Source: an uncultured virus (IMG/VR IMGVR_UViG_3300027751_000013)
Lineage: Duplodnaviria > Heunggongvirae > Uroviricota > Caudoviricetes
Strand: one strand, 5' to 3'
DNA length: 64,000 nt
IMG/VR virus record: IMGVR_UViG_3300027751_000013
The notes beneath the pieces are model-generated. The model had not been told where the DNA came from. It saw nothing but the letters and a program-made list of their open reading frames with translations, and did no database searches. A program made the translations under genes and the position numbers. Of the stretch, positions 1,229 through 45,986 are shown piece by piece. Each line of letters starts with the position of its first letter. Position 1 is the stretch's first letter.

Positions 1229-1423
1229 ATGAACAAAGAGGTTATAGAAGTTCGAGGAAACTTGTATCAAGTAGTTAGAAAAATTAAAGAGTCTCAAGTT
1301 AACGGTAACGTAGACGGATTAAAGGCTTGGAGAGAACTTCTTCACTGTGATACAATGTTTAACTCGAATGGAGTATACTACCTAGTAAAAGAAATAACAG
1401 ACGTAAATATAAACAATGAGTAA
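1229..1423 (+). CDS. Hypothetical protein
   Basis: 64-aa ORF overlapping the groES start. Confidence 0.7.
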   Translation: MNKEVIEVRGNLYQVVRKIKESQVNGNVDGLKAWRELLHCDTMFNSNGVYYLVKEITDVNINNE

Positions 1424-1724: not shown

Positions 1725-1726
1725 AT

Positions 1727-15459: not shown

Positions 15460-15460
15460 G

Positions 15461-16720
15461 ATGAGTAAACCATTAGCAGTAGTAAGCTGCCCTATAGACA
15501 CATATTCAGGATACGGAGCAAGAGCAAGAGACTTTGTAAAAGCTTTGATCGATTTAGATAAGTACGACGTAAAGGTTTTATCTCAAAGATGGGGTAACAC
15601 TAGATTTGGTTATTTAGAAGATCATAATGAAGATGATTTAAGTTCTAGAATTATACCTAACATGACTGTTAAACCAGACTTATGGGTACAGATTACAGTA
15701 CCGAATGAGTTTCAAAAAGTAGGTAAGTTTAACCTAGGAGTTACCGCTGGAATGGAAACTACATTAGTTCATAATACTTGGATTGAAGGATGTAATAGAA
15801 TGGATCTAAACCTAGTATCATCAGAACATAGTAAAAAGACTTTTTTAGATACTGTGTATATTAAAGAGGATACTAAAACAAAACAACCTACTGGAGAATT
15901 AAGATTAACATCTCCTATGGAGGTTTTATTAGAAGGAGCTGATTTAACTAAATACTTTCCGACTACAAGTTCATTAGACTTATCTCCTATAAAAGAATCA
16001 TTTTGTTTCTTATTTGTAGGTCATTGGTTAAATGGTGACTTTGGTCAAGATAGAAAAAATGTAGGGTATATGATTAAATCTTTCTTAGAGACATTTAAGA
16101 ATAAAAAAGATGCACCTGCTTTGATTCTAAAGACTAGTCAAGTTACTACTTCTATTACGGATAGAGAAGCAGTATTAGATAAGATAGAACAAATTAGACA
16201 ATCAGTTAAAGGTACCTTACCAAACATCTATCTCTTCCATGGAGATGTAAGTGATTCGGAAATGAATGAACTTTACAATCATCCAAAAGTAAAAGCGATG
16301 ATTTCGTTTACTAAAGGAGAAGGATTTGGAAGACCGTTATTGGAATTCAGCCTTGTTAATAAACCTATCATAGCTTCAGGTTGGTCTGGACATGTAGACT
16401 TTTTAGATAAAGAATTTACAAACCTAGTAAGCGGGGAGTTAACACCAGTACATCCATCAGCAGCATCTAAGGATATGATACTTACCGAAGCTAAATGGTT
16501 TAGTGCAGATGAAGCAGCAGTAGGAAGAATTTTAAAAACAGTACACAAAGACTACAAAAAGTTCTTATCTTTATCTAAGAGACAAGGACATAAAAGTAGA
16601 ACAGAGTTTAGTTACGAAAAGATGGTAGAAGTATTAGGTAGAACATTAGACCAATACGTTCCAGAATTTACTAAACAGATAGAATTAAATTTACCAAAAT
16701 TAGATTTACCAAAATTATAG
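15461..16720 (+). CDS. GT-B (GT4-like) glycosyltransferase
   Basis: SGYGARAR, DRKNV, TKGEGFGRPLLEF, IIASGWSGH. Confidence 0.9.
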   Translation: MSKPLAVVSCPIDTYSGYGARARDFVKALIDLDKYDVKVLSQRWGNTRFGYLEDHNEDDLSSRIIPNMTVKPDLWVQITVPNEFQKVGKFNLGVTAGMETTLVHNTWIEGCNRMDLNLVSSEHSKKTFLDTVYIKEDTKTKQPTGELRLTSPMEVLLEGADLTKYFPTTSSLDLSPIKESFCFLFVGHWLNGDFGQDRKNVGYMIKSFLETFKNKKDAPALILKTSQVTTSITDREAVLDKIEQIRQSVKGTLPNIYLFHGDVSDSEMNELYNHPKVKAMISFTKGEGFGRPLLEFSLVNKPIIASGWSGHVDFLDKEFTNLVSGELTPVHPSAASKDMILTEAKWFSADEAAVGRILKTVHKDYKKFLSLSKRQGHKSRTEFSYEKMVEVLGRTLDQYVPEFTKQIELNLPKLDLPKL

Positions 16721-16722
16721 TT

Positions 16723-17175
16723 ATGAAAGATCAATTAGTAGACTGTAAACGATGCGGAGGAAACGCATGTTACGAACAGCACATAGACGAATCAACAACT
16801 ACCTGGTTATGTATGGGGTGCGGGTTTACAACCTCAACTCTAATGAATGAAGGAGGAAAAGTAGTAGGGGACTTAATAGAAACTTCTCCAACTCTTTACA
16901 AAGATCTACTCTTCACAGACGATACTAAAAAAGTATGGGCTCCAGCAACAATGACATTACCAGAAAAAGGAATGGTATTCTTAGATGGTACATCAGAAAA
17001 GGAATGGAAATGGGCTGCAGTAAAAGCTATTAAGATTACAGAGGAGGAAAGAAAAGTAAAAAACTTCCCTAACGATCAGACATATAAAATGGATATGGCT
17101 GGCATTAAACATTACGGTCAAAGAGAGTTTATGGATGCTTTAGAGTTAATTGGTTTCTACGAAATAGGAGAGTAA
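16723..17175 (+). CDS. Zinc-ribbon-containing hypothetical protein
   Basis: CKRC...CMGC. Confidence 0.7.
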   Translation: MKDQLVDCKRCGGNACYEQHIDESTTTWLCMGCGFTTSTLMNEGGKVVGDLIETSPTLYKDLLFTDDTKKVWAPATMTLPEKGMVFLDGTSEKEWKWAAVKAIKITEEERKVKNFPNDQTYKMDMAGIKHYGQREFMDALELIGFYEIGE

Positions 17176-17799
17176 ATGAAAATTAGTTACGCAATAACAG
17201 TATGTAATGAGTTTGTAGAAATACAAAAGCTTGTTAACTTTCTTAGAGAGAATAAAAGAACTCAAGATGAGATTGTTATACTCTTTGATCAGAAGAACGG
17301 TGACCAAGAAGTAGCCAACTGGTTAACTAAACAAAGTAAATACCCAAATGTTCAGTTCTGGAGAGGATTCTTTGATGGCCATTTCGCTGATTGGAAAAAT
17401 AAATTGACAGAATACTGTGAAGGAGATTATATCTTTCAGATTGATGCCGATGAATTGCCTAATAAAATTCTCATTGATAACCTACCTAATATACTAGAGG
17501 CTAACCCTACAGTTGATATGTTAAGAGTTTCTAGAATTAATACTGTTGAAGGATTAACAGAAGAGCATATTAAGAAATGGGGATGGACGGTAAATGAAAA
17601 AGGTTGGGTTAACTGGGCAGACTGGCAAATGAGAATCTATAGAAGACATCCTGATATTAAGTGGAAAAATAAAGTTCATGAAGTATTGGATGGATTTAAA
17701 ATACACGGGATGTTACCAATGGAGGAAGAGTATGCTCTATACCATCCAAAAGATATAGAAAGACAAGAAAAACAAAACGCATACTACGATACATTATGA
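17176..17799 (+). CDS. GT2 glycosyltransferase
   Basis: ISYAITVCNE, YIFQIDADE, KVHEVL. Confidence 0.9.
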   Translation: MKISYAITVCNEFVEIQKLVNFLRENKRTQDEIVILFDQKNGDQEVANWLTKQSKYPNVQFWRGFFDGHFADWKNKLTEYCEGDYIFQIDADELPNKILIDNLPNILEANPTVDMLRVSRINTVEGLTEEHIKKWGWTVNEKGWVNWADWQMRIYRRHPDIKWKNKVHEVLDGFKIHGMLPMEEEYALYHPKDIERQEKQNAYYDTL

Positions 17800-18110
17800 A
17801 ACCAAAAAGTAATATATACGTAGATATAGATGAAACTATCTGTGATTATGAGTACAGAGAAGATAAGTTTAACTACAACTTAGCAAGACCTATACAAATT
17901 AATATAGATAAAATTAATAGACTCTATATTCAGGGACATTTAATTACATACTGGACTGCTAGAGGTTCAAGAACTGGGGAAGACTGGTACGAAGTTACTA
18001 AAAATCAATTAGAGGAATGGGGATGTAAGTACCACTTCTTAAGTGTAGGAGAAAAACCTGCATATGATTTACTGATATGTGATAAATCTAGAAGGATAGA
18101 GGAGATATGA
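17796..18110 (+). CDS. HAD-family phosphatase (capsule-biosynthesis type)
   Basis: YVDIDETI, WTARG, EKP.YDLLICDK. Confidence 0.85.
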   Translation: MKPKSNIYVDIDETICDYEYREDKFNYNLARPIQINIDKINRLYIQGHLITYWTARGSRTGEDWYEVTKNQLEEWGCKYHFLSVGEKPAYDLLICDKSRRIEEI

Positions 18111-18958
18111 AAAAAACCTATATAATAGCTGAAATCGGAATTAACCATCAGGGTGATATTAATATTGCAAAACGGTTAATAGATATTGCAGCAGCAGCTG
18201 GATGTGATGCAGTAAAGTTTCAAAAACGTAACCCCGATATAGCAGTCCCTGCAGCACAAAAAAATAAACCTCGTAGATGGCAAGGTCAAGATATGACCTA
18301 TCTTGAATATAAGTATAAGGTTGAATTCGGTAAAGAAGAATACGACGAAATCGATCGATACTGTAAGCAGCAAAACATTACTTGGTCAGCTTCACCATGG
18401 GATTATGATTCGGTTGAATTTTTAAAACAGTATGATTTACCGTTTATAAAAGTACCTTCTGCTATGTTAACAAATCATAAACTGCTTACTTCATGTATGA
18501 AGAGTAGTATGAGAGTAATACTTTCAACAGGAATGTCCACTGAAGAAGAAATAGATGAAGCAGTTAATGTATTAAGAAAAGCTAAACATTTTTTTAGAAA
18601 CCCTCATCCAATAGGATTACTACATTGTAATTCTTCCTACCCTGCTCCTGTAGAAGAACTTAACTTATCCGCTATAAAGACCTTAACCGAAAAATACCCT
18701 GATTGTGAAATAGGATACTCAGGACATGAGATATTACTAGGTACGACAGTAGCGTCAGTACTACTAGGAGCGTCAATTGTAGAGAGACATGTTACACTAG
18801 ATAGGAATATGGAGGGATCGGATCATGCATGCTCTGTTACTCCACATGGTCTTTTTAAACTAGTTTCAGGAATAAGAGATTTAGAAAAAGCATATGGGGA
18901 TGGACAAATCAAAGTAACTGAAACTGAAAAAGCTGTTAAAGAAAAACTTAGAGGATGA
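18107..18958 (+). CDS. neuB: NeuB-family nonulosonic acid synthase (lacks C-terminal AFP-like domain)
   Basis: IIAEIGINHQG, DAVKFQKR, ILSTGMS, LLHCNSSYP, GYSGHE, ERHVTLDR..GSDH. Confidence 0.93.
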   Translation: MKKTYIIAEIGINHQGDINIAKRLIDIAAAAGCDAVKFQKRNPDIAVPAAQKNKPRRWQGQDMTYLEYKYKVEFGKEEYDEIDRYCKQQNITWSASPWDYDSVEFLKQYDLPFIKVPSAMLTNHKLLTSCMKSSMRVILSTGMSTEEEIDEAVNVLRKAKHFFRNPHPIGLLHCNSSYPAPVEELNLSAIKTLTEKYPDCEIGYSGHEILLGTTVASVLLGASIVERHVTLDRNMEGSDHACSVTPHGLFKLVSGIRDLEKAYGDGQIKVTETEKAVKEKLRG

Positions 18959-19638
18959 AAAACTTAAATGAAATAGCATTTGTAGTTCAGGCAAGACTTA
19001 ATAGTAAAAGGGTACCTCAAAAGATGATTCGTCCATTTGCTGGTGATACGTTATTTGGTATAGTATTAGACAAGCTATTGGACTGCAAAAATATACCTAA
19101 CGAAAATATATTTGCTTCTATATACGAAGACGAGCTTATAGAGATTGTAGATAATAAACCAATCAGTTATTTTGTTAGAAGTAAAGAATCAGCCGAAGAA
19201 GAGGACAATTTACAATTAATATACGAATGGCATGATAAGCTTCCAGCTAAGTACAAGTACGTAGTTCTAATTTCTGGTTGTAATCCATTACTTCAAATAA
19301 ATACGATTGATAGGTTTATAGAAAAGTTCGTAAACCAACAGGAAGAAAATCTATTTGCAGTCATAGAAAAAAGACAGTACTTCTGGAATAAACAAGGTAA
19401 GATGATTAATGATTGGCCGGTAGGTGAAACAATAATGAATACGAAAGTCATTGAACCTACATATGAAGCAGCACATTGTCTCTACGCTTCTAGATTAGAT
19501 ACTATAAAAAATAATAAATTTATGGTAGATTTTTCAAAAGAAAACCTTACCTTATATACTATACCAGAACTAGAGTCATTTGATATCGATTACGAATGGC
19601 AATTTAAAACAGCTGAACTGTTGTATGAAAAAATTTAA
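18955..19638 (+). CDS. neuA: CMP-nonulosonate synthetase (cytidylyltransferase)
   Basis: QARLNSKRVPQKMIR, CNPL, FDIDYEWQF. Confidence 0.85.
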   Translation: MKNLNEIAFVVQARLNSKRVPQKMIRPFAGDTLFGIVLDKLLDCKNIPNENIFASIYEDELIEIVDNKPISYFVRSKESAEEEDNLQLIYEWHDKLPAKYKYVVLISGCNPLLQINTIDRFIEKFVNQQEENLFAVIEKRQYFWNKQGKMINDWPVGETIMNTKVIEPTYEAAHCLYASRLDTIKNNKFMVDFSKENLTLYTIPELESFDIDYEWQFKTAELLYEKI

Positions 19639-20452
19639 AGTAGGAGTATTAGGAAACGGATTCGTAGGAGAGAGTCAAGCATTTGCTTTCTCACCAACTA
19701 CCGATTTAAGAATTTATGATGTAGATCCATTAAAAGCTACTCATACAAAAGAACAAGTAGACGAATGTGATTTTATATTTGTTTGTGTTCCAACACCAAT
19801 GTATAAAGATGGTTCACAAGATCTATCTTATATTGAAAAAGTATTTGAAGAGGCAGTAGAAGGGCCAATCTATATTATCAAATCTACAGTGCTACCCGGT
19901 ACCACAAAAGAACTCTCTGAGAAATATAATAAGATTAATATAGTATTTAGTCCTGAGTTTTTAACTGAGAGAACCGCTAAGTTAGATATGTTAACACAAG
20001 CAAGAATTATCTTTGGAGGACCAAGACAGCATACTAGAAAAGTAAGAGATTTGTTTGAGCAAAGATTCATGAATAGAAATATAATTGAAACAGACTCTAC
20101 AACTGCTGAGTTAATCAAATATATGAACAATACTTTCTTTGCAACCAAAGTATCTATCATGAATGAATTCAAAAGACTTTCAGATGCAATAGGAACTGAT
20201 TGGGAGACAGCTTTATATGGATTTGCTTCTGACGGAAGGATAGGAGATAGCCACTTACATGTCCCTGGACCAGACGGTAGAATGGGATACGGAGGAACTT
20301 GTTTTCCTAAAGATGTTAACGCTATTATAAAATACGGAGAAAAATATGGAACTCCTATGAATACTATAGCTGCAGGTTGGAAGACCAACCTAGAGGTTAG
20401 ACCAGAAAAAGATTGGGAAAAAGATAAAGGTAGAGCAGTAAGCGATGATTAA
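19625..20452 (+). CDS. ugd: UDP-glucose/GDP-mannose dehydrogenase family, short form (start revised to ATG 19625)
   Basis: GNGFVG, CVPTP, IKSTVLPGTT, FSPEFL, AELIKY..N.F.A.K, GYGGTCFPKD. Confidence 0.9.
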   Translation: MKKFKVGVLGNGFVGESQAFAFSPTTDLRIYDVDPLKATHTKEQVDECDFIFVCVPTPMYKDGSQDLSYIEKVFEEAVEGPIYIIKSTVLPGTTKELSEKYNKINIVFSPEFLTERTAKLDMLTQARIIFGGPRQHTRKVRDLFEQRFMNRNIIETDSTTAELIKYMNNTFFATKVSIMNEFKRLSDAIGTDWETALYGFASDGRIGDSHLHVPGPDGRMGYGGTCFPKDVNAIIKYGEKYGTPMNTIAAGWKTNLEVRPEKDWEKDKGRAVSDD

Positions 20453-21131
20453 AAATAGTTTTAGGGAAGATATAGAGTTCATTTTTACTAAACTAAAAAA
20501 TAAAGAGAAGTTTAGTTTTAGTAAATACGCTGATGGAGAGTTCGCAATACTAGCTAACCAACGTATAACCAATATCGATAATTGGACTTTTGATCCAACA
20601 AAACATTCTGAGATTAGGAATGAATTAATAAGATCGTTCCAATTTAAAGATCCTGAATACTACGTAGGAGTTAGCTGTAAGTGCTGCCAACCTGAACAAA
20701 TAGTAAACTGGATGAGACAAGAATCAAAACAAGATGTTCTTACTTGGGCTAACATATTTGTTAATAGTAACTACCCTTACTTCCAAGAGAATTTTATTCC
20801 GGAATTTAGTAACCATAAAGTAGTTTTATTTGCAAGAGAAGATGCTCGTACAAATGAATTACCATTTGAAGTAGAACATATACCTATAACTTCGGAAGCT
20901 TTTATAGATAATTTTGATATGGTAGAAAATTTTCCTATAGAAGAATATAAAGACAAGTTATTTTTATTCTGTGCTGGACCATTAGGTAACATGTTAGCAG
21001 CTAAATTTTGGGAAAAGAATAAAGAGAATACATATCTTGATATAGGTTCAACATTAAACGGATACTTAACTGAAACTAATAGAGGGTACCTTAAAGGAGG
21101 TAACACAGCACTAAAAACTTGTATATGGTAA
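20445..21131 (+). CDS. GT-D-like glycosyltransferase
   Basis: FSKYADGE, FCAGPLGN, YLDIGS. Confidence 0.65.
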   Translation: MIKNSFREDIEFIFTKLKNKEKFSFSKYADGEFAILANQRITNIDNWTFDPTKHSEIRNELIRSFQFKDPEYYVGVSCKCCQPEQIVNWMRQESKQDVLTWANIFVNSNYPYFQENFIPEFSNHKVVLFAREDARTNELPFEVEHIPITSEAFIDNFDMVENFPIEEYKDKLFLFCAGPLGNMLAAKFWEKNKENTYLDIGSTLNGYLTETNRGYLKGGNTALKTCIW

Positions 21132-22105
21132 ATAAAGTCTTAATTTGTTTTGGAACAAGACCTGAATGGTTGAAAGTAAAACCTTTAGTTGAGACTTTAG
21201 ATAACTGTCAACTACTCTTTACCGGTCAACATAAAGACTTACTTGCTGATATAAAAGTAGACTATAGAATAGAAATAGGAGATCAAACAAATAGACTTGA
21301 TCAAATCATAAGTGACTGCTTACTTCAATTCCCAGAAGGAGACTTCGATACAGTCTTAGTTCACGGCGATACAGTTTCAGCTCTTGCTTGTGCTCTAGCA
21401 GCATTTAGTAGAAAGAAAAAAATCATTCACCTTGAAGCAGGTTTAAGATCTCATGATTTGACTCAACCTTACCCGGAAGAAGGGTACAGACAAATGATAT
21501 CTAGAATAGCAGATATAAACTTTGCTCCAACTGAACTGTCAGCTGAGAATTTAAAACAAGAAAGAGTTTTAGGAACAACACACATTGTAGGTAATTCAGT
21601 TTTAGATAACTTACTGCCATTAAAAGATGAAGCAGTATATGGAGACAAAGTTCTAGTCACCTTACATAGATGGGAGAATCATATTTGGATGGATAAATGG
21701 TTTAAAGAAGTAAACCAACTAGCGATTGATAACCCTACCTTAGAGTTTATCATTCCTCTACACCATCATCCCGAAGTACAAAAACATAGAGAATTACTAA
21801 CACATGTTAATGTAGTTCCGTCTTTACCTCATACTGAACTTTTAGATATAATGTTACAATCTAAACTCATCATATCAGATAGCGGAGGACTTCAGGAAGA
21901 AGGAACATTCTTTAATAAGAAAGTAATTGTATGTAGAGATGTAACTGAAAGACCAGAAGGTATAGAAACAGGACATTTACATTTATGTCATTACCCAGAA
22001 CAGATATCTGATATCTTTTATAAGATTTTAAATAATTACGAAATAGATACAAAATGTCCATACGGTGAAGGTAATACAGCCAAACTAGTTAAAGATTTAC
22101 TATGA
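21125..22105 (+). CDS. wecB: UDP-N-acetylglucosamine 2-epimerase
   Basis: FGTRPE, TGQH, VHGDT, HLEAGLRS, PYPEE, SDSGGLQEE, TERPE. Confidence 0.95.
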   Translation: MVNKVLICFGTRPEWLKVKPLVETLDNCQLLFTGQHKDLLADIKVDYRIEIGDQTNRLDQIISDCLLQFPEGDFDTVLVHGDTVSALACALAAFSRKKKIIHLEAGLRSHDLTQPYPEEGYRQMISRIADINFAPTELSAENLKQERVLGTTHIVGNSVLDNLLPLKDEAVYGDKVLVTLHRWENHIWMDKWFKEVNQLAIDNPTLEFIIPLHHHPEVQKHRELLTHVNVVPSLPHTELLDIMLQSKLIISDSGGLQEEGTFFNKKVIVCRDVTERPEGIETGHLHLCHYPEQISDIFYKILNNYEIDTKCPYGEGNTAKLVKDLL

Positions 22106-22818
22106 TAACAGTTGTACTAAATAGCTACAAAAGAGCACAATACCTACCTGAACAGATAAAAGCCATTAGGGAACAATCTATTCCTGTAGACGAAATAATG
22201 GTATGGTCAAACAAACCAGAAGAAGGGTTACAGTACAATATAGATAATTTAGGAGTTAAGGTAGCTTATGCAAATCATAATTTCAAGTTTCATGGTAGAT
22301 TTGCTTTTGGTTTATTAGCTAGAAGCGAGTATGTAGCTTTTTTTGATGACGATACAATACCTGGACCTAAATGGTTTGAATCTTGTTTAAAATACTCAGA
22401 GGAAAATATTATACTAGGTTCAACAGGAGTTAAGTATTTAGGAGATGCTTATGACCCGCATGAAAAGTATGGCTGGAATGGAATAAAAAGTAATAAACTA
22501 GAAGATGTTGACTTAGTTGGACATTCATGGTTTATGAAAAGATCTACTTTAAAGTACTTATGGGAAGAAGATCCCATCTCTTGGGAGAACGGAGAAGATA
22601 TTCAACTGTCTGGTTTTGCTTATAAATACGGAAACATAAGAACAGCAGTACCCCCTCACACTCTAGATAATAGAGAGGAATGGGGAAGTATAAAAGGAGA
22701 CGTATACGGAAATGATGAAAATGCTTCTCATTGGAAAGGTAATCATTCACCGTTACGTAATCAGATTTCTAAAACATTAATGGAACAAGGATACAAAAAA
22801 GTAATAGATAGAATATGA
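22102..22818 (+). CDS. GT-A (GT2-like) glycosyltransferase
   Basis: VVLNSYKR, AFFDDDTIPG, GEDIQLS. Confidence 0.85.
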   Translation: MITVVLNSYKRAQYLPEQIKAIREQSIPVDEIMVWSNKPEEGLQYNIDNLGVKVAYANHNFKFHGRFAFGLLARSEYVAFFDDDTIPGPKWFESCLKYSEENIILGSTGVKYLGDAYDPHEKYGWNGIKSNKLEDVDLVGHSWFMKRSTLKYLWEEDPISWENGEDIQLSGFAYKYGNIRTAVPPHTLDNREEWGSIKGDVYGNDENASHWKGNHSPLRNQISKTLMEQGYKKVIDRI

Positions 22819-23663
22819 AAGTACTAGTAACAGGCGGAGCTGGTTTTATCGGAACAAATATTGTTAATAAACTTCTTAAAGAGGGGCATGAAGTTATGTC
22901 TTTAGATAATTACGATAGTGGCCTTAAAGAGAATGAACTACCTGGATGTATATACAAAGAAGGAGAGTTAGAGTTCTTAAAGTACTTTAATGGAAACGGA
23001 TTTGATATAGTTTACCATCTAGCAGCTTTATCTAGAATACAGCCTTCATTTGAAAATCCATTAGAAACTTTCAGAGTAAATACCGAAGGAAGTTTAATTG
23101 TAGCTGATTGGGCTAAAAAGTACAACGTAAAGGTTGTTTATGCCGGTTCATCTTCAAGATGGCATGATCCATTACAATCACCTTACGCAGCTTTTAAACA
23201 TATGGGAGAAGAAATCTTTAAAATGTATAGAAAGGTATACGGGTTAAATGTAGAAATAGCTAGATTCTATAATGTATATGGACCGAAAGAAATAGTAGAT
23301 GGAGATTGGGCAGCAGTTATAGGAATATGGAGACGTCAAGTTAGAGATGGAGAACGTATTACAATAGTAGGTGATGGAGAACAGAGAAGAGACTTTACTC
23401 ATGTTCACGACATAGTAGACGCTTTATATAAAATTGGTATTGGAAAAGAATCACACGAAGATGCTTGGGAATTAGGAACAGGAGTCAACTACTCTATCAA
23501 CGAAGTATTTGATATGTTTAAAAGTAGGTTTAATGTTGAAGCAGTATACTTACCAGACCAGAAAGGAAACTATAGAAAGACTTTAAGAGAGAATGATGAT
23601 AGTTTATTACGTTTAGGTTGGAAACCTGAAGATCAATTACTATCTTATATAAACAGCTTATGA
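22815..23663 (+). CDS. NAD-dependent sugar epimerase/dehydratase
   Basis: VTGGAGFIG, YHLAA, SPYAAFK, RFYNVYGP, GDGEQRRDF. Confidence 0.95.
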   Translation: MKVLVTGGAGFIGTNIVNKLLKEGHEVMSLDNYDSGLKENELPGCIYKEGELEFLKYFNGNGFDIVYHLAALSRIQPSFENPLETFRVNTEGSLIVADWAKKYNVKVVYAGSSSRWHDPLQSPYAAFKHMGEEIFKMYRKVYGLNVEIARFYNVYGPKEIVDGDWAAVIGIWRRQVRDGERITIVGDGEQRRDFTHVHDIVDALYKIGIGKESHEDAWELGTGVNYSINEVFDMFKSRFNVEAVYLPDQKGNYRKTLRENDDSLLRLGWKPEDQLLSYINSL

Positions 23664-24409
23664 AATTAGTAGTATATACAGCCCTATTTGCAGACGAATC
23701 TCTACCTTTAGAAGATGTAGGAAGGTTTTTTCCATTCACTCATGACAAAGGAGGTGTAGAGTACATAGCGTTTACAAATAGAGAAGACCTAAAATCAGAC
23801 TTTTGGGATGTAAGAGGTATAGAAAAAGAAGGGGATAAGTCATTTAGAATGATGTCTAGGTTCTTAAAATGGAACCCAACAAAAGCTAATCTTCCGGAAC
23901 ATACTCATTCATTATGGATGGACTCACAATGTTATTTCCAATACGAACCTACAGCTATTGTTGATGGATACTTGAAAGACAAATACCATACAGCTATGCA
24001 TCATCATACAGACCTACAAAGTATCTATGTAGAAGGAATGGTAACATCGTATGTTTACTTTAATGACAAACCTTCTATTGTTAATAGACAATTAGAAAGA
24101 TACTTCGAAGAAGGGCATCCTTATCAATATGATCATTACGAAACTGGAATACTTATTAGAAAGAACTGTAAGGAAGCTAATGAACTTGGAGAGACTGTTT
24201 ATAATGAACTCTCCAACGGAAGTATTAGAGATCAACTATGTACACCATATGTAGTTAAAAAGAGGAGAGACAAAGGAGATGAAGGTATACTAACAATACA
24301 AGAATCTTTCACAGGACATAGAGGACAGCTACCTCTACCTAAATCAAAAATATTTTTTACAGAACCAAAACCAAGCGAAAAGCTTAAAGAAGATTTAACA
24401 AAGAGATGA
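23660..24409 (+). CDS. DUF616/TOD1-like GT-A glycosyltransferase
   Basis: VVYTAL, SRFLKW, SLWMD, ETGILIR, RDQL. Confidence 0.7.
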   Translation: MKLVVYTALFADESLPLEDVGRFFPFTHDKGGVEYIAFTNREDLKSDFWDVRGIEKEGDKSFRMMSRFLKWNPTKANLPEHTHSLWMDSQCYFQYEPTAIVDGYLKDKYHTAMHHHTDLQSIYVEGMVTSYVYFNDKPSIVNRQLERYFEEGHPYQYDHYETGILIRKNCKEANELGETVYNELSNGSIRDQLCTPYVVKKRRDKGDEGILTIQESFTGHRGQLPLPKSKIFFTEPKPSEKLKEDLTKR

Positions 24410-33169: not shown

Positions 33170-33568
33170 ATGATAAAAGGAGTAATTGCCGGAAACTTTG
33201 ACGTAATGCATCCAGGCTACATAAAGATGTTTAAAGAAGCAGCAGCAAATTGCGACTGTTTAGTAGTCTTACTTCATACTGACCCTTCTATTGAACGCCC
33301 ACATAAGCTTAAACCTATTCTATCTATAGAAGAACGTAAAGAGATGTTGTTTGAATTAAAATCAATATGTGGCATACTTACGTATACTTATGAAGAACAG
33401 CTCTTAGACTTACTAAAAATGGGGGAGTTTGATGTAAGGTTCCTTGGAGATGATTATAAAGGTAAGCCTTTTACTGGAGACTATCTAAACATTCCTATTT
33501 ATTATTTGAATAGGGATCACGGGTGGTCTACTACAAAGTTTAAAAAAATGATAGCTAAAACTGTATGA
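33170..33568 (+). CDS. Cytidylyltransferase (TagD/RfaE-like)
   Basis: GNFDVMHPGY, LGDDY, HGWSTT. Confidence 0.9.
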   Translation: MIKGVIAGNFDVMHPGYIKMFKEAAANCDCLVVLLHTDPSIERPHKLKPILSIEERKEMLFELKSICGILTYTYEEQLLDLLKMGEFDVRFLGDDYKGKPFTGDYLNIPIYYLNRDHGWSTTKFKKMIAKTV

Positions 33569-33754: not shown

Positions 33755-35959
33755 ATGAAAGGAACCCTTTTTTCAACAGATTTTGTTAAAGACTCTAATG
33801 GAAACTTAAGATTGCTTGAAATCAATACAGATACTGCTATTGTTTCTTCTGCAATCAAACAATTAGACTTTACAGGATTTAAACAAGTATTAGAAAGTAA
33901 TTCTATTACAAAAGTAAAGACAATCCATAAACTATATCAAGAAGATATCGTAGAAGCATTAAAAGCATACTTAGATGCAAATGTACCTTCAGTAAACTCT
34001 TTTGAAAGTATAGTTGAAGATAGCAACACTATTTATCCTACATCTGTAGAAGATGCAGCAGATACCTTTATCTTAAGGTTAGCTTATGATGAAGCTGCAT
34101 TATTAGATAGTGAATATGCTAAAAACACACACAATATTCTAAAACTATTCAGCGACAATGGGCAAATTAGTTCAACAGTTGGGTATTATTATGCTGGAGG
34201 CGGTAGTATAGAAGACCACCTTACAAGAGATTTTAATGCTGAAAACGTTCCTGATATTTTAGTTAAAAACTTGAACACTACTTTAGGAGAGCCGATTGAG
34301 TTCTTTAAAATAGGTCAATCAAGTAAGACAGCTGAAGATAGATTTGCTGATGTATTCGATATGTTAGATGATACTAAAATTGCTATGAACTTCTACAACG
34401 ATGAAGCAGCAGCAAAAGTAGAATCTTTTAGAACATTACACATAGTATACGGAAGCGACCTAAACGTTATCGATGTAGCAGGATTTAAATCTTCAGCTAT
34501 ATTAGATAAACCAGCTTCTCTATCAGTAGTAGATGAAGATATAGTAACGAAAGTAGATGTAAAGCACTACCATGAATTAACTACTACATTACCTAGATTT
34601 GGAGTAGGTTCTAACTACGGAGGTATCTTTGAAGAAGAGTTTATTGTAAAAGCAGACGGTACGTTAGTACCTATTAAAGACGCTACAGTAGGAGATTCCT
34701 TTAAATCATACTTTATTTCAGGTTCACCCGATACAGACATTGAATCAGAATATCTAGCATGGACTTACCCAGGATCTGAATTACCTAGTGGTTCTTACGC
34801 TACAACTTCTACTTTAGTAAACAACTTAGAAGTAGGTTTATTCTATAATATGATCTTCCACGTAACTTTACAAGACGGAAGTGATTTTAGAGCAACAGGA
34901 AACTCTCACGTATTAGTTTACGATGTACAGGCAGACTTATTAAAGTATGTTGCAGTAAACTATCTATCATCAGATAAACATAAATTAATATCTGCAGGAA
35001 ATGGATTAGTAGATATTACAGGAGTTGTTTGTGAGATATTAGATGGGGAGTATTCTTCTCATATTCTAGATATGGAAATAGCCGATACATTCTTCATCGG
35101 TGATGGACAATTAAGCGTTAAGATTGTTGCCCACAACTGCTTCCCAGCTGGTACTAAAATTACAATGGCTGATGGTTCAGTCAAAAACATTGAAGACGTT
35201 AAGGCAGGAGATAAACTATTAACTATCAACGAAAATACTTTAGAACAATCAGAAGGTAGAGTTGGAGATGTATTAGTTAAGAAAGATAGATTGTTATTCG
35301 AATTCAAATTAGAAGACGGAGGAGTAATCAAATCTACATCTCATCACAGATATTTCGTAAAAGAAAAGTCATGGTTAACTGCTCAAGATATTCAAGTAGG
35401 AGACGTATTAGTTAGATCAAACGGAGATGATGTCAAAGTAGAATCAATTGAACAGCACGAAGGTGAGTTTGAAGTATTCCATATTATTGATGTAAAAGAT
35501 AACCATACTTACTACGCAGAAGATATTTTAGTTCATAACTATAAAGCTTGTTTCATCGCTGGAACAGAGATTACTTTAGCGAATGGAGATGTTAAAAATA
35601 TCGAAGATGTAGCAGTAGGAGAAGAAGTTCTTACTTACAACGAAGATAAAAAAGAAACAGAAGCAGGAGTAGTAGGAGACTTGAAGAAACATGAAGTTCA
35701 ATCTGTAATCAGATTAACTCTTGATAATGAGAATGTAATCGTAACAACTGAAGAACATCCTTTCTATGTAGTAGATGCAGGATGGGTAAAAGCAGGAGAA
35801 TTACAACCATTAGATGTTTGTTTAAAAGAAGACGGTAAAGAATCTCTAATCTCTTCAGTAGAGGTATTAGAAGAGAAACATGAAGTATTTAACTTACTAA
35901 GCGTTTCTGAAAACCATAACTTCTTCGCTAACGGAATATTAGTTCACAATAAAAAATAA
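33755..35959 (+). CDS. Circularly permuted ATP-grasp-like ligase fused to three tandem Hint (BIL/PT-HINT-like) domains
   Basis: DFVKDSNGNLRLLEINTDT resembles the glutathionylspermidine synthase DF..D....KLLE.NADT motif; Hint1 G290-N461, Hint2 C462-N595, YKA, Hint3 C599-N732, KK. Confidence 0.85.
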   Translation: MKGTLFSTDFVKDSNGNLRLLEINTDTAIVSSAIKQLDFTGFKQVLESNSITKVKTIHKLYQEDIVEALKAYLDANVPSVNSFESIVEDSNTIYPTSVEDAADTFILRLAYDEAALLDSEYAKNTHNILKLFSDNGQISSTVGYYYAGGGSIEDHLTRDFNAENVPDILVKNLNTTLGEPIEFFKIGQSSKTAEDRFADVFDMLDDTKIAMNFYNDEAAAKVESFRTLHIVYGSDLNVIDVAGFKSSAILDKPASLSVVDEDIVTKVDVKHYHELTTTLPRFGVGSNYGGIFEEEFIVKADGTLVPIKDATVGDSFKSYFISGSPDTDIESEYLAWTYPGSELPSGSYATTSTLVNNLEVGLFYNMIFHVTLQDGSDFRATGNSHVLVYDVQADLLKYVAVNYLSSDKHKLISAGNGLVDITGVVCEILDGEYSSHILDMEIADTFFIGDGQLSVKIVAHNCFPAGTKITMADGSVKNIEDVKAGDKLLTINENTLEQSEGRVGDVLVKKDRLLFEFKLEDGGVIKSTSHHRYFVKEKSWLTAQDIQVGDVLVRSNGDDVKVESIEQHEGEFEVFHIIDVKDNHTYYAEDILVHNYKACFIAGTEITLANGDVKNIEDVAVGEEVLTYNEDKKETEAGVVGDLKKHEVQSVIRLTLDNENVIVTTEEHPFYVVDAGWVKAGELQPLDVCLKEDGKESLISSVEVLEEKHEVFNLLSVSENHNFFANGILVHNKK

Positions 35960-35964
35960 GAATC

Positions 35965-36105
35965 ATGCCAGTAGTATATAAATCATTTGATTACCAAACA
36001 GAAGCAAGAGACAAAGCAGTAGAAGCAGCAGATGTAACTACAAAACAGCAAATGAATGACATCGTTGCAAGCTTTGTAAATTTATTTAAAGCTAAACACC
36101 TATAG
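35965..36105 (+). CDS. 46-aa protein directly after the Hint gene (not in track)
   Basis: MPVVYKSFDYQTEARDKAVEAADVTTKQQMNDIVASFVNLFKAKHL; same AATCATG start context as the Hint gene. Confidence 0.75.
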   Translation: MPVVYKSFDYQTEARDKAVEAADVTTKQQMNDIVASFVNLFKAKHL

Positions 36106-36119
36106 TATACAGCTTTAAA

Positions 36120-36647
36120 ATGGTTACTGAAAAAACGTTATTCTCACAACAAGATTGCGAATACATTAAATCATTTTATGATGTAGCAATTGAGAAGAAC
36201 GAAAAAGGTTTCAAAATAAACTCAGACAAATACCCACAAGGTATAGCAATAAAAGACGGTTCAGCAGTATCATGGAATGAAATCCAAAACGATACTCTGG
36301 ACCGTTTCTTGTTAAGTAAGCTTATAGAGTTAGAAATAACTTCACTCCCTTATCTTAAGCTAATGAAGTACGGAGTCGGAAATGAAATGAAACCTCATAG
36401 AGATTTTCAGGCATATGATACAAGTACAATCTATAGATCAACAACAATACAGCTAACCAGTCCGGAAGATTATAAAGGAGGAGAGTTATATGTAGAAGGA
36501 GTAAAAGCTAGTAATATACAAGGAACTGCAATTATGTTTAACCCCTATCAAACACATTGGGTTACAGAGATTACTGAAGGAGAAAGATGGGTTATAGTAG
36601 CTTTTTTAGAAGAGTTTCATTTTAATACTAAGAAAAGTTTATTATGA
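36120..36647 (+). CDS. 2OG-Fe(II) oxygenase (prolyl-hydroxylase-like)
   Basis: PHRD, YKGGEL, THWVTEITEGER. Confidence 0.92.
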   Translation: MVTEKTLFSQQDCEYIKSFYDVAIEKNEKGFKINSDKYPQGIAIKDGSAVSWNEIQNDTLDRFLLSKLIELEITSLPYLKLMKYGVGNEMKPHRDFQAYDTSTIYRSTTIQLTSPEDYKGGELYVEGVKASNIQGTAIMFNPYQTHWVTEITEGERWVIVAFLEEFHFNTKKSLL

Positions 36648-37153
36648 TTGATCAAAAAGTATTATTTACAGCAGAAGAATGTGAGTGGTTGAAATCCGCA
36701 CAATCAACTATATACCCACCAGTAGAAGATACTAAATGGTGGGAGTCACATCGTATAAATTATAGATTTAAAAATATACAAGAAAGAGAAGTATTTGAAC
36801 AGTCACGTTTAGATTTTGTTGCTAGTAGAGTTAAACAATTAGGAGTGAAATCTGTTCCTACATATAAAATTATACATTACGGTAAAGGTGGATTCTTCGC
36901 CCCTCACATAGATTCAGGGAGAAACCATCCAATTAGAAGAAAAACATTATTAGTGCAGCTATCCTCTAAAGAAGATTATTCTGGAGGTGATATGTATGTT
37001 AAGGGTGTACTTTTTGAAAAGACAATAGGCAATACAATATTATTTGATTCGTCATTAACTCATGAACTAAAATTAATAGAAGGAGGAAATAGATTAGTTA
37101 TGGTCACATGGTTATCTATTTATAACCTTGAGAATCCTAAAACTTTACTATGA
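36644..37153 (+). CDS. 2OG-Fe(II) oxygenase
   Basis: FAPHID, YSGGDM, THELKLIEGGNR. Confidence 0.92.
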   Translation: MIDQKVLFTAEECEWLKSAQSTIYPPVEDTKWWESHRINYRFKNIQEREVFEQSRLDFVASRVKQLGVKSVPTYKIIHYGKGGFFAPHIDSGRNHPIRRKTLLVQLSSKEDYSGGDMYVKGVLFEKTIGNTILFDSSLTHELKLIEGGNRLVMVTWLSIYNLENPKTLL

Positions 37154-37674
37154 TAACAGTTAAACATAACGTACTGTCGGATAGAGAGGTAAACAAGCTA
37201 CTCACTTTATGGTATGATACAAAACCTAACCATATTATAACAGACGGCTATAAGTATAATATTGAAGCAGTAGAGATTTTAGACTACATAGATAAATTAA
37301 AACTTTCGTATTCTTTTCCAAAAGAACACTATAGGGACTTTATACTACAGACAATAGATGAAACACATAGCAAAGCTCCTAATCATGACAAATATCACCG
37401 ACATGAAAATGAATGGACATATGTTATGTACTTAAATGATAACTATCAAGGAGGAGAAATAGAGTTTACTAATGGAACTATCATTAAACCACAAGTAGGA
37501 GATGTTATATACTTTTCACCTGAAGAAGGACATAGAGTTAAACCCCCATATGATTTTACCGAACAGTATTTTAAACACAACGGTAAGAGTATTCTTATGA
37601 ATAAAAGATGGTCACTTGTCGGATTCATGAATTCTGACATTATAAACGAGAATAAAAAAACATGCTTAATTTAA
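37150..37674 (+). CDS. 2OG-Fe(II) oxygenase-like protein (HxH variant)
   Basis: YHRHEN, YLNDNYQGGEIEF, HRV...KRWSL. Confidence 0.85.
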   Translation: MITVKHNVLSDREVNKLLTLWYDTKPNHIITDGYKYNIEAVEILDYIDKLKLSYSFPKEHYRDFILQTIDETHSKAPNHDKYHRHENEWTYVMYLNDNYQGGEIEFTNGTIIKPQVGDVIYFSPEEGHRVKPPYDFTEQYFKHNGKSILMNKRWSLVGFMNSDIINENKKTCLI

Positions 37675-38366
37675 TTTATACCTATTCAATCAAACTTAGC
37701 GGTAACAGTATAGAAAAATACGTTAAACTCCTAAATAAAGCATACCTACATAACAGTAAGTACCATTCTATAGTACTATATACCGATAGGGAGACATTAC
37801 CGTATGTAGAAGATATTTTTCCGGAGATAAGATTAGTAGAAATAGACAATCTTCAATTTATGGATGATATAAAAATGAAGATTATAGATAAACTTGAAAG
37901 CAATAGTATACTTACAGATTACGATATCTTTTTAAACTCACCTTTAATACTTCCAGACAATTTTGATGTGTATGTAGATAGAAGAGGTAAGGTAAAAGAG
38001 TTAGTACTGTACAGCCATTTGTTTGAACATTTAAGACATGAAGGTTATGGTATTTTTACTAAAGATGTAAATACCTATTTGAATGTAGGTATATTAAAAA
38101 TCAACAGTGAACATAAAATAAAAGCTATTAAAGACGCATATTACGCTTTAAGAAATTGGTATGTGGATAATAAAATAGAAGAAAGAACTCAATTTACATA
38201 CCATACAGGAGTATGCCCTTCTATAGCAGCTTTACAGTACAATTTAGATAAAATAGCTACTATAAGTAACTGGAAAGTATGTGAGATGAAAAAATACAAC
38301 AACTACCATCATTTAGTTGGAGAAGATAAATTTAAAGAAATAAGCACAAAAAATACTGTGATTTAG
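37662..38366 (+). CDS. DxD nucleotide-sugar-transferase-like protein
   Basis: IVLYTD, K...ILTDYDIFL, YLNVGIL, YHHLVG..K. Confidence 0.6.
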   Translation: MLNLIYTYSIKLSGNSIEKYVKLLNKAYLHNSKYHSIVLYTDRETLPYVEDIFPEIRLVEIDNLQFMDDIKMKIIDKLESNSILTDYDIFLNSPLILPDNFDVYVDRRGKVKELVLYSHLFEHLRHEGYGIFTKDVNTYLNVGILKINSEHKIKAIKDAYYALRNWYVDNKIEERTQFTYHTGVCPSIAALQYNLDKIATISNWKVCEMKKYNNYHHLVGEDKFKEISTKNTVI

Positions 38367-38426
38367 TTGTCAAAACAGTATATTTTTCATATATTTAGAT
38401 ATATTAATCTATTAAAGACAAATGTT

Positions 38427-38615
38427 ATGAACAAATTATTTTTTGTACCTTCAACCAAAATTAACGCAAGAATTGCCGACACTGTTGTTACAGGACAGCA
38501 TATTACAGTAGAAGGGTTAACTTACCAAATGGTATCAAAAAGACCACTTGGAAGAAGAGTACTAAGACGTCTAATTAACGAATCTACAAATACAAAAATT
38601 GTAATCTATTCATAA
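38427..38615 (+). CDS. Hypothetical protein (start revised)
   Basis: Behind promoter at 38365; TGTTATG start. Confidence 0.6.
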   Translation: MNKLFFVPSTKINARIADTVVTGQHITVEGLTYQMVSKRPLGRRVLRRLINESTNTKIVIYS

Positions 38616-38619
38616 CCAA

Positions 38620-39408
38620 ATGAAAGCAATATATAGCTACAAAATATTCTCAGACCAACGTAAACCTTTAGATAAAACGTTTTGGAAACTAGCTGCATAT
38701 AGTGTTAAGTCTGCTTCTAAGTATTATAGAACAGTTCTGTACTCCGATGAAGAAAGTGGAAAGCTATTTGATAGACACGGAATTTATTTTGATGAGTATC
38801 ATATTCTTCCTGAAATAGAAAATTATAAAGGAAGGGTTTATAGTGTACCAAAAATATATGCAATGATTGCTGAGAAAGAGCCATATATTCATTTAGACTT
38901 TGACTCTGTAATACTGGAAGAGATTATATCTACACACACTATTACATACGCATATACAGAAGTTGATTTAATAAATCTAGCAGGGTATGCTAGAATAGAT
39001 TACGTATTTGGAGGATATGTAAGACCTTATCGAGACTTGTTGGTTGATATATTTAAGGATGATATAATATATCCTGATTTTAATATAGTACCTAACCATT
39101 CTTTTCTGATGGTAAAAAATCCAACTATTGTTAGAGAGATTTACAAAAGAATACTCAGTAAAATACCAGCGGACATATTAGAAGAAGTAAGCCCTACATT
39201 ATTAGAGCAATGTCTACTTTACCTATACTTAAAAGAAAATCAAACAGATATAGGATACTTAAGTTGGTATTCAGCAGAGAAGTTTTTAGAACGTGAGTTC
39301 GGTTCTTATAAATTTATACATTTACCATTTTACAACGAACCGGAAAAGAAAGAAGAAGTAGAGTTTGTTCTTAAAAAACTTGAAGAACAATTCGGCCCAA
39401 TCGAATAA
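38620..39408 (+). CDS. DxD nucleotide-sugar-transferase-like protein (DUF6734-like)
   Basis: TVLYSD, PKIYAM..EPYIHLDFD, LLEQ, FIHL. Confidence 0.65.
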   Translation: MKAIYSYKIFSDQRKPLDKTFWKLAAYSVKSASKYYRTVLYSDEESGKLFDRHGIYFDEYHILPEIENYKGRVYSVPKIYAMIAEKEPYIHLDFDSVILEEIISTHTITYAYTEVDLINLAGYARIDYVFGGYVRPYRDLLVDIFKDDIIYPDFNIVPNHSFLMVKNPTIVREIYKRILSKIPADILEEVSPTLLEQCLLYLYLKENQTDIGYLSWYSAEKFLEREFGSYKFIHLPFYNEPEKKEEVEFVLKKLEEQFGPIE

Positions 39409-44787: not shown

Positions 44788-44966
44788 AGTTAGTATATAC
44801 TCAAGAGACTATCAACTACATGGCTAAAATTAATCCTCAACTCATAGAAGATCTAGCCAAATACGGAGCACCAGAACCAGTCGAACTATTAGATGATAAG
44901 GGAACTATAATAAACAAGTACTATCTATATAATATTAATGAAGATACTTCCGAACATATTAGCTAA
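44784..44966 (+). CDS. Hypothetical protein
   Basis: 60-aa coupled ORF. Confidence 0.55.
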   Translation: MKLVYTQETINYMAKINPQLIEDLAKYGAPEPVELLDDKGTIINKYYLYNINEDTSEHIS

Positions 44967-45468
44967 AGAATATGTTTCTTCTATACTTTCTAAACAAAAG
45001 CAGTTAGGGTATAAAGGAAGAGAATCATCTCCTATACATTTGAATTCTGCTATTGTAGAATGGAATATAGAAGGATATTGGAATAATGATGATGCAGTAG
45101 TACTTTCATTTGAAGATAAAGGCTTCGTATTTCTTCTATATACTTTTCAAAAGGATATAAACGGAACAGATAAACTCTACTGCGAAATAAGGCACATAGT
45201 AACATTAGAACAGTATAGAGGACAAGGTACCGGTAAGCAGTTAGTAGAAGCAACTGCAAAACACATGAAAGAGAGAGATTGTCAAATCTTAAAAGTCCTT
45301 TCAGATATTAAATCTAAAAACTTCTACATTAAAAATGGATTTGAGGTTTCCGGAATAACAAAGCACGGACTATCCTACTTCTGTAATGATATTACTTCTA
45401 GGAGAAATGTTTCAATGCCTGCTAGTGATTTTCCTTTTATGACTAATTCTCCTAAATCAATATTATGA
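44938..45468 (+). CDS. GNAT acetyltransferase
   Basis: IVTLEQYRGQGTGKQL, NFYIKNGF. Confidence 0.92.
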   Translation: MKILPNILAKEYVSSILSKQKQLGYKGRESSPIHLNSAIVEWNIEGYWNNDDAVVLSFEDKGFVFLLYTFQKDINGTDKLYCEIRHIVTLEQYRGQGTGKQLVEATAKHMKERDCQILKVLSDIKSKNFYIKNGFEVSGITKHGLSYFCNDITSRRNVSMPASDFPFMTNSPKSIL

Positions 45469-45986
45469 GAGGTATAATTAGAAATGTACTCAATCAATCT
45501 GATATAGACTCTATTTTTAAACTATATAATGAGTCTTCTAATATTGTTGAATTATATGGAGAGTTAAAAAATAGACATAACATTTCAAGTAATTTAGGAA
45601 TGTTTCTTTTATCACATTTTACACAAAAAGAGTTTCAACCATTCCTTTCTAAAATTATACCTTCAATAGAAGCTAAAGAAAGAATTGAATTAGAAACTAC
45701 TTCATGTAGGGTACTTAAATACACGAAAGATTGCTTTATTTCAAAACATAGAGACATTAAAACTTCAGAAGCCAATTCAAGCCTTTCGGTAATAATACAG
45801 CTCTCTAATCAAGATGAGTACGTAGGAGGAAAAGCGATTATAGACGGAGAAGAAAGTATACTACAGCAAGGTGATTTAGAGTATTATACCTATAGTTACG
45901 AACATGAAGTTACTAAAATATTTTCCGGTTGTAGGTATGTTATTAACTTACGAATTAATATCAAAAAAGATTCAACTTTAATATAA
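45465..45986 (+). CDS. 2OG-Fe(II) oxygenase
   Basis: SKHRD, YVGG, HEVTKIFSGCRY. Confidence 0.9.
   Translation: MRGIIRNVLNQSDIDSIFKLYNESSNIVELYGELKNRHNISSNLGMFLLSHFTQKEFQPFLSKIIPSIEAKERIELETTSCRVLKYTKDCFISKHRDIKTSEANSSLSVIIQLSNQDEYVGGKAIIDGEESILQQGDLEYYTYSYEHEVTKIFSGCRYVINLRINIKKDSTLI

Follow-up and report, generated by a model that had tools for sequence, protein, structure and literature searches.

What does a phage make with a ligase that carries Hint domains in its own chain and is followed by a run of oxygenases and transferase-like proteins? This question is raised by a locus in a 64,000-nucleotide stretch of DNA (the window) from an uncultured aquatic Caudoviricetes virus (IMG/VR IMGVR_UViG_3300027751_000013), which is part of a single 94.8-kb contig with phage-like genes on one strand. 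A first-pass annotation had read the region as a cluster that modifies a peptide, a virion protein or DNA, with an open reading frame (ORF) of 46 amino acids (aa) as a possible substrate; every ORF that it named was recovered at the same position.

We hold with moderate confidence that the locus encodes an enzyme-fused, Hint-released peptide precursor with a partner subunit, tailoring enzymes docked by a tag, and an ATP-grasp domain that would form an amide on a core amine. The 734-aa protein would be enzyme and precursor in one, comprising the ATP-grasp domain, Hint 1 and a core that two further Hints split into YKA and KK. The 46-aa protein would bind the ligase, and the two would jointly form a modelled pocket for a C-terminal K-x-x-hydrophobic-L/I tag, by which a tagged enzyme would dock and hence reach the still-tethered core. 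Four oxygenases, one GT-A-like protein and one GNAT acetyltransferase would hydroxylate, glycosylate and acetylate Lys or Tyr; hydroxylation followed by glycosylation is a plausible order on such a ligase-borne peptide. Hint 1 would cut at Asn461, replacing a protease, and Hints 2 and 3, to judge from their motifs, would release or join the pieces, while the ATP-grasp domain may close the peptide or fix it to a target, e.g., a virion protein. The product could decorate a virion protein or could act within the host as a modified peptide in free form.

The ligase polyprotein and its small companion

The polyprotein and the ORF behind it comprise the following features:

33755..34609, + strand: ligase domain with a circularly permuted ATP-grasp fold, covering residues 1-285 of the polyprotein of 734 aa (by Foldseek, VIA, conservation and complex model)
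34610..35137, + strand: Hint 1, no Cys1, terminal His-Asn kept; all-beta Hint-like region in the model
35138..35539, + strand: Hint 2, BIL-type, motifs complete (C462, T528-x-x-H531, H594-N595)
35540..35548, + strand: YKA spacer, candidate core peptide, at the site where relatives have variable peptides
35549..35950, + strand: Hint 3, BIL-type, motifs complete (C599, H668, H731-N732)
35951..35956, + strand: terminal KK, second piece of the candidate core
35965..36105, + strand: putative 46-aa partner subunit of the ligase (by co-occurrence, substitution rates and complex model)

The ligase domain belongs to no Pfam, PHROG or NCBIfam family, and PDB sequence searches with the ligase, DxD and sulfotransferase-like profiles gave no match under E 0.3. 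By structure, the model of residues 1-285 (predicted local distance difference test, pLDDT, of 82) matched E. coli YjfC/YgiC in Foldseek (E 3e-7 to 2e-5), and the top ten VIA rows were all glutathione synthetases, YgiC, Cp1B and GspS with middling Z of 6.2-8.4 (at Z 8.4, the root-mean-square deviation (rmsd) is 5.0 with 214 aligned). VIA-align against the glutathione-synthetase/GspS clade gave Z of 6.0-8.4 and rmsd of 4.6-5.9 with about 190-225 aligned. Judged by its model, the domain is a permuted ATP-grasp whose D...ExN segment has moved to the N-terminus. Residues D9, E22, N24, K185 and R226 are invariant in 93/93 homologues and K171 is kept in 90/93; from their motifs, we take these six to have metal and ATP roles. 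The most likely reaction of the ligase is to use ATP for an amide bond that joins an amine of the core to a carboxylate.

Hint 1 has no Cys1, while its terminal residues H460 and N461 are conserved in 91/93 and 93/93 homologues and the block-B His in 36/93. Assignment to the BIL type, by a Cys or Ser at position 1 together with the block-B His, was therefore rejected for this domain. Its predicted activity is cleavage solely at its own C-terminus, freeing the downstream sequence. Hints 2 and 3 have the Hint fold, Cys1, TxxH, His-Asn and a non-nucleophilic +1 residue (Tyr596 and Lys733) of BIL domains, and BIL structures are their best Foldseek matches (E 4e-11 to 1e-10). BIL domains are capable of cleavage, and of splicing by aminolysis. 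Elsewhere in the family (L090-L100, L107, L110, L122, L132 and others), the last Hint keeps Cys1 without the terminal His-Asn, so that, in the manner of Hedgehog, it would be limited to turning the peptide before it into an activated thioester. In another locus, a Hint domain is encoded by a gene of its own, a few kb past the ligase (L014:14724-15224).

The ligase family is large, with 536 proteins at E 0.001 in one search and, in another, 359 clusters at 50% identity, and is common on viral and metagenome contigs. A tblastn search of 50,697 GenBank phage records with the ligase domain gave no match, and 185,579 prokaryote genomes yielded a single one, on a 2.8-kb contig of a metagenome-assembled genome. 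A search for shorter homologues gave 68 matches, mostly on short contigs, which were not taken as Hint-less forms. For the comparison of loci, 152 loci plus the genome were reduced to 91 with a complete ligase ORF by leaving out those whose ligase was cut or distant; grouped at 90% identity, these give the 68 groups of the first clade. A second, Cys-rich clade of 45 distinct loci was fetched separately with its own alignment.

As the first-pass annotation had pointed out, the 46-aa ORF (35965-36105) starts 5 nt past the ligase stop. A small ORF directly follows the ligase in 89/91 loci (66/68 groups) of the first clade, the two misses ending within 165 nt, and in 44/45 distinct loci of the second clade, where misses are contig ends. 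The ratio of nonsynonymous to synonymous substitution rates is 0.19 over 16 disjoint pairs, indicating purifying selection. The family is 43-53 residues long, conserved end to end (Y5 in 66/66, F37 in 59/66 and H45 in 64/66 sequences) and has an amphipathic C-terminal helix; in the second clade, 44/44 small ORFs end in Lys/Thr/Arg-His-Leu/Ile. No Pfam, PHROG or NCBIfam family covers it, and its Atlas matches all score <0.9. The ORF is therefore a real gene. Together with the complex model described below, these data suggest that its product is the partner subunit of the ligase, a suggestion that shares the moderate confidence placed in the overall reading. Two sequence cues that had drawn attention to the ORF fared less well. 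AATCATG is present at both starts (4 occurrences in the 94.8-kb contig), but it does not hold up as a signal, the four preceding bases agreeing in 5/65 loci. YKS and FKA are present too, but their resemblance to YKA is put down to chance because YK/YR occurs in 65/66 small ORFs, YK-initial spacers in just 4/68 groups, and YK in 0/44 small ORFs of the second clade.

The first-pass annotation had regarded the 46-aa ORF itself as a RiPP-like (RiPP, a peptide made on ribosomes and modified after translation) precursor acted on by the ligase, oxygenases and transferases. The small ORF always adjoins the ligase, its conserved Tyr-Lys and Lys-His are possible sites, and precursors too bind their enzymes. 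However, the family has no variable core, and its 66 sequences have neither Cys nor GG. Nor do they have a conserved acid for an ATP-grasp crosslink, with no acidic column above 30/66 and Asp/Glu combined in 48/66 at one helix position. It remains similar while the enzyme sets differ completely between loci, YK is absent in 44/44 sequences of the Cys-rich clade, and in the model its conserved end forms part of the wall of the tag pocket. A precursor role is thus very unlikely, and the ORF behaves as a conserved subunit instead. The narrower idea of a graspetide precursor was rejected on the same 66 sequences, which have no variable core and no conserved Asp/Glu column.

Parts of the ligase gene are represented in RNA-library contigs of three studies, and a 740-nt contig runs across the end of the ligase and the small ORF; DNA carry-over is possible in each case. 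The tailoring genes are little covered by these contigs, which can neither show absence nor rank genes. A contig of run X1 matches this locus through the ligase and the small ORF but departs from it where oxygenase 1 begins (window position 36125), as would be expected of a swappable cassette. Runs X2 and X3, with small shares, were excluded from the habitat reading.

In a distant clade of 15 loci (11 distinct; L017, L025, L027-L036 and L039-L041), the small ORF is missing, and with it both the pocket motifs and the tag, which occurs in 2/45 genes. Its ligases have an N-terminal extension and spacers such as IPPK and KF, and its oxygenases all end in G-x-x-F-K/R, which may be the normal end of that family or a second tag. 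A fusion of the 46-aa helix to the N-terminus of this clade was considered and found unsupported (hhalign 0.8%, E 0.07).

The C-terminal tag and its modelled reader

The genes around the polyprotein are listed below; the 62-aa ORF had not been named in the first-pass annotation.

33170..33568, + strand: cytidylyltransferase-like gene, untagged; family in 4/68 loci, not a fixed part
36120..36647, + strand: 2-oxoglutarate/Fe(II) (2OG-Fe(II)) oxygenase 1 (H93-x-D95, H146), tagged; PF13640 E 1e-9; family in 42/68 loci
36633..36644, + strand: residues 172-175 of oxygenase 1, its C-terminal tag, which is docked in the complex model
36644..37153, + strand: 2OG-Fe(II) oxygenase 2 (H88-x-D90, H140), tagged; PF13640 E 1e-9; oxygenase 1 family
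37150..37674, + strand: 2OG-Fe(II) oxygenase 3, HxH type (H83-x-H85), tagged; PF13640 E 2e-8; family in 10/68 loci
37662..38366, + strand: DxD protein 1, GT-A-like (D86-Y-D88), tagged; family in 22/68 loci
38427..38615, + strand: 62-aa ORF, untagged, between the two DxD genes
38620..39408, + strand: DxD protein 2, DUF6734-like (D93-F-D95), untagged here; family in 3/68 loci
44938..45468, + strand: GNAT acetyltransferase with the same tag, candidate outlying member
45465..45986, + strand: 2OG-Fe(II) oxygenase 4, tagged likewise; candidate outlying member

Six of these proteins end in K-x-x-hydrophobic-L/I, namely oxygenases 1-3, DxD protein 1, the GNAT at 44938 and the oxygenase at 45465, while the end is absent from DxD protein 2 and the cytidylyltransferase. 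A loose form of the pattern fits 9/112 contig genes; a stricter form, written after the six genes had been seen, fits those six only. In the first clade, the first long gene after the ligase and its partner is tagged in 57/65 groups and the next six places in 46-60%, compared with 0-16% of genes at places 6-13 upstream of the ligase. In the second clade, 132/157 of the first four downstream genes are tagged. Counted over families, the tag occurs in 316/417 versus 46/606, which is partly circular, as the choice of families was made with knowledge of the tag; we therefore rely on the counts by position.

To find where such a tag could bind, we rely on a complex model of ligase residues 1-461, the 46-aa protein and ATP, with oxygenase 1 as the scored partner. 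The complex scored 0.66 (runs 0.52, 0.67 and 0.66), and the best of 3 controls 0.02. The score mark is reached by 116/157 solved and 2/215 mismatched pairs, counts that hold roughly for a model with its own unpaired alignments and an ATP ligand. The runs share at least 35% of contacts, with a partner pLDDT of at least 75, and the 24 surest contact pairs all fall on tag residues 172-175 of oxygenase 1. On the ligase, the modelled contacts are K2, G3, T4, R108, E113-L117, V231-G233 and L236; on the 46-aa protein they are F41 and H45, which touch tag residue L174, and its C-terminal helix F41...H45-L46 completes the pocket. The 15 ligase pocket residues are more conserved than the domain as a whole (0.85 vs 0.56, permutation p 2e-5), and R108 is present in 45/45 second-clade ligases. 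We know of no solved complex of this kind. With the model and conservation combined, the tag probably docks in a pocket formed by the ligase and the 46-aa protein, and we place good confidence in this part of the reading.

The modelled position of the tag also raises a rival explanation, in which the tagged enzymes are ligase substrates: their C-terminal carboxylate would be activated and joined to an amine, of the Lys-rich pieces, a polyamine or a virion Lys, in the manner of YgiC/YjfC. These two are the nearest folds and are named peptide-spermidine ligases in PMC12568646. Moreover, the last tag residue touches R108, and R108-x-x-Y111 of the ligase is the motif counterpart of Arg324...Tyr327 in trypanosome glutathione synthetase (TbGS; Arg267 in HsGS), according to PMC2845819; as R108 thereby matches a substrate-binding Arg, the tag could be a substrate. 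In the trypanosome enzyme, however, Arg324 of the S-loop holds the far glutamyl carboxylate, which is not the reacting one (PMC2845819). D9, E22, N24 and R226 are absent from the confident tag contacts, although residues not named there are uncertain. Along their strands, T4 and V231 are five residues away from D9 and R226. By strand register, the tag would sit in a substrate-side subsite some way from D9/E22/N24/R226, which favours docking over tag activation. The substrate explanation also leaves the match of halogenase and SET genes to core composition (see below) unexplained, and we regard it as distinctly unlikely.

Candidate core peptides and their putative tailoring enzymes

If tagged enzymes dock on the ligase, the sequences behind Hint 1 are the candidates for what they would modify. 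Among the best 150 of 359 matches in a profile search over 1.84 billion proteins, Hint 1 is followed by 0-14-residue spacers before another Hint, by short Lys-ended tails, or by 23-70-residue peptides rich in Cys, Gly and aromatic residues. In four relatives (P0316, P0304, P0311 and P0278), a peptide and an S74-like self-cleaving chaperone domain replace the second Hint; the S74 match reaches E 1e-6 in P0316, lies below the cut-off in P0304 and P0278, and was not found in P0311.

In the second clade, the core directly after Hint 1 contains Trp and six or more Cys in 45/45 loci, with internal Lys in none and Lys among the last four residues in 43/45. These cores (L174-L253) end in KL, KI or KV in 33/45 loci, resembling a short enzyme tag, and their own end might use the tag pocket. 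A 100-aa Cys-containing family without a Pfam match (L187:9608-9907), tagged in 40/40 members, occurs in 40/45 Cys-rich-core loci. First-clade spacers are almost free of acids, Asp/Glu making up 7/634 residues of the distinct spacers (4 of the 107 inner spacers and a single terminal spacer are parse errors), compared with 15% in the ligase, and Lys or Arg is found in all 68 parsed sets, about 11 of which were parsed with extra residues. In this window, the candidate core consists of YKA and KK only. A variable gene-encoded core with co-clustered tailoring enzymes, as defines a RiPP, is thus found in the family, clearly in the Cys-rich clade and in minimal form here.

At least one tailoring gene accompanies the ligase in 67/68 first-clade groups, which supports the first-pass view that the Hint ligase belongs with a cluster for modifying peptides or proteins, and the set differs from locus to locus. 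Per 68 groups, the oxygenase 1/2 family occurs in 42, SET in 37, sulfotransferase-like genes in 23 (weak Pfam support, 3/20 members), DxD protein 1 in 22 and radical SAM in 21. The co-occurrence that the first-pass annotation had proposed as a check was found from the other side as well: loci seeded with the oxygenases contain the ligase in 14/14 cases, 5 of which are near-copies of this locus, the seed alignment having been built from ligase-adjacent genes. DxD-seeded loci contain it in 3/6; two of the other three begin where their contig does, and in the remaining one the DxD gene is without the tag. A scan seeded with the halogenase returned only the query's own contig.

The composition of these sets follows the core between clades. 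A Trp halogenase, expected before counting, occurs in 30/45 second-clade and 2/68 first-clade loci, and both of the latter have Trp in a spacer and lie on separate tree branches. In contrast, SET genes occur in 3/45 versus 37/68 loci and the DxD protein 1 family in 1/45 versus 22/68.

The three overlapping oxygenases (36120-36647, 36644-37153 and 37150-37674) are as first annotated and all match PF13640. The HxD...H iron motif of oxygenases 1 and 2 is kept in 51/53 family members, while the oxygenase 3 family has HxH...H in its place. The relatedness of the two DxD proteins is also confirmed: pairwise BLAST gave no useful match (E 0.02), but a profile alignment spans 96 columns at the N-terminus (hhalign 95%, E 3e-8), so that by profile comparison they are distant relatives. 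In the DxD protein 1 family, D86, D88, G143, Y193, H217 and K223 are invariant in 30 sequences, DUF6734 is matched by 3/30 members (best E 3e-9; Atlas 0.96), and no PDB sequence match was found. Its motif layout recalls GT8, and by sequence we presume a GT-A assignment. DxD protein 2 did not keep the fixed place that it had first been given, as it is untagged and its family is found in 3/68 loci; it is an optional or bystander gene. The cytidylyltransferase does lie upstream at 33170-33568, but it too is no constant member (4/68 loci, no tag). The 62-aa ORF is probably a bystander; it also occurs in L005, which has a close ligase but neither DxD gene. The tagged GNAT and fourth oxygenase lie 9 kb downstream (44938-45986), and this pair occurs in L005 too.

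A hypermodified-DNA product, another suggestion of the first-pass annotation, would have the cluster hydroxylate and then glycosylate phage bases, and oxygenase and GT-like genes do adjoin a thymidylate synthase. However, the window's oxygenases match PF13640 and PKHD-type models, and none of the four matched TET/JBP (PF12851) at E 0.1; one neighbour family elsewhere has a sub-threshold Tet_JBP match (E 0.007). Thymidylate synthase neighbours the ligase in just 4/68 loci, and the usual companions are SET, halogenase and sulfotransferase-like genes, which makes a DNA product highly improbable.

Several observations weigh against the peptide pathway that we favour. The complex was modelled outside its calibration, with own unpaired alignments and ATP, and run 1 scored 0.52; furthermore, one tagged enzyme was modelled, and the 46-aa chain was not scored as a partner. 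In the second clade, the loose tag also fits 61/180 genes six or more places upstream, because that island extends upstream. Ser7 of the ligase, present in 92/93 homologues, stands two residues before the first Asp, where an Arg is expected; by motif spacing, we take it to be the position of HsGS Arg125. The enzyme-core contrast is mainly one clade-versus-clade comparison, so that lineage or habitat could explain it, and 8/10 first-clade loci with a Trp spacer, including a 7-locus WK group, have no halogenase in the fetched DNA. Six residue-enzyme links within the first clade had just 1-3 independent pairs. Such links, among them those of Pro with one oxygenase family and of Tyr with DxD protein 1 and others, were rejected, as some pass Fisher tests among 171 tried but with only 1-3 independent tree pairs among those listed. 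Finally, a core of 3 + 2 residues is small for four oxygenases, and Hint number (1-4) and spacer length vary freely, as mobile cassettes in a loose tail would.

The small core, the free variation of the tail and the scarcity of independent pairs would fit a hub with the same tag docking that serves another substrate (a protein of the virion or the host, a small molecule or a glycan), YKA and KK being a leftover tail round mobile Hint cassettes. Tagged SGNH-like proteins, FkbM and other methyltransferases, sulfotransferase-like and GT-like proteins could act on sugars. Against this, the spacers are almost acid-free with Lys or Arg in every parsed set, six-Cys peptides occupy the same place in relatives, and halogenase and SET content tracks core chemistry between clades. 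We consider this explanation unlikely.

Around the locus, a promoter scan gave 35 promoter-like sites against 39.3 expected, and a terminator scan found none on the + strand. By eye, positions 762-3373 hold small heat-shock-like, GroES-like and GroEL-like phage genes, and positions 14011-24409 hold glycosyltransferase-like, sialic-acid-synthase-like, epimerase-like and nucleotide-sugar genes, mostly untagged; this block is a possible sugar source for the DxD proteins. Outside the window (G000:C1:7001-19091), genes that we take, by their motifs, to resemble QueC, QueD, QueE, FolE and QueF stand beside a radical SAM gene of the tagged family type and a carbamoyltransferase-like gene. The Que-like block is possibly a 7-deazaguanine DNA pathway, separate from the ligase cluster.

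Known systems and biological meaning

No description of this system was found in the literature searched, most subscription journals being outside its coverage, and it resembles several known systems in part. Graspetides of the microviridin type share an ATP-grasp enzyme beside a small ORF. In contrast, the structure search with the ligase here ranks permuted, glutathione-synthetase/GspS-type enzymes above RimK-type ones, and the small ORF has neither a variable core nor a conserved Asp/Glu. YgiC/YjfC (7uka, 7uk6), GspS (2io7), eukaryotic glutathione synthetase and Cp1B (9cjn) share the fold and the permutation, with D...ExN at the N-terminus and R-x-x-Y/F after the pre-grasp strand, but at 9-13% identity, and the 285-aa domain here is fused to Hints and has a 46-aa partner. 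The BIL Hints (2lwy; BIL2 of Tetrahymena BUBL, 6y75) share with Hints 2 and 3 the Cys1, TxxH and His-Asn motifs and a +1 residue other than Cys, Ser or Thr. Here, however, they form a tandem array behind a ligase with 0-3-residue exteins and a Hint 1 without Cys1, and the cargo is a small peptide rather than ubiquitin-like domains or a toxin.

The PKHD/P4H-like oxygenases of aquatic phages (PF13640, phrog_61) share fold family, iron motifs and tandem arrays with those of the window, which in turn share a C-terminal tag with unrelated folds and fall below NCBIfam PKHD cut-offs. The DxD proteins have the DxD, NxG and H-x-x-G-x-x-K layout of GT-A proteins (DUF6734, GT8-like) and Atlas neighbours in DUF6734 (80% of the cluster) and in a cluster with 20% GT8, but reach no curated cut-off. 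In borosins of the OphMA type, as described in PMC7878506, the modifying enzyme is likewise fused to a C-terminal core, which is modified while attached and then released. The enzyme fused here is an ATP-grasp and not the alpha-N-methyltransferase that defines borosins, and the predicted release is by a Hint as opposed to a prolyl oligopeptidase. In addition, further enzymes would dock here by their own C-terminal tag, as modelled, and the system is found in viruses.

Taken further, the peptide pathway may be a virus-only ribosomal one with reversed recognition: the enzymes would bear a four-residue tag that the ligase and its 46-aa subunit read, and one-sided Hint release, without protease or leader, would be followed by cyclisation or target fixation by the fused ATP-grasp. 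For this extended form, we see the case as evenly balanced. If recognition is reversed in this way, gaining the tag would suffice for any enzyme to join the line. Since the model names the pocket residues, tag binding is testable with one short peptide. For peptide engineering, four residues that bring enzymes of any fold to a substrate able to release itself would be a simple plug-in. For large uncultured aquatic phages, the finding, if true, would give a role to their tandem 2OG-Fe(II) oxygenases and their SET, halogenase and sulfotransferase-like genes, and would mean that phages encode a modular peptide chemistry.

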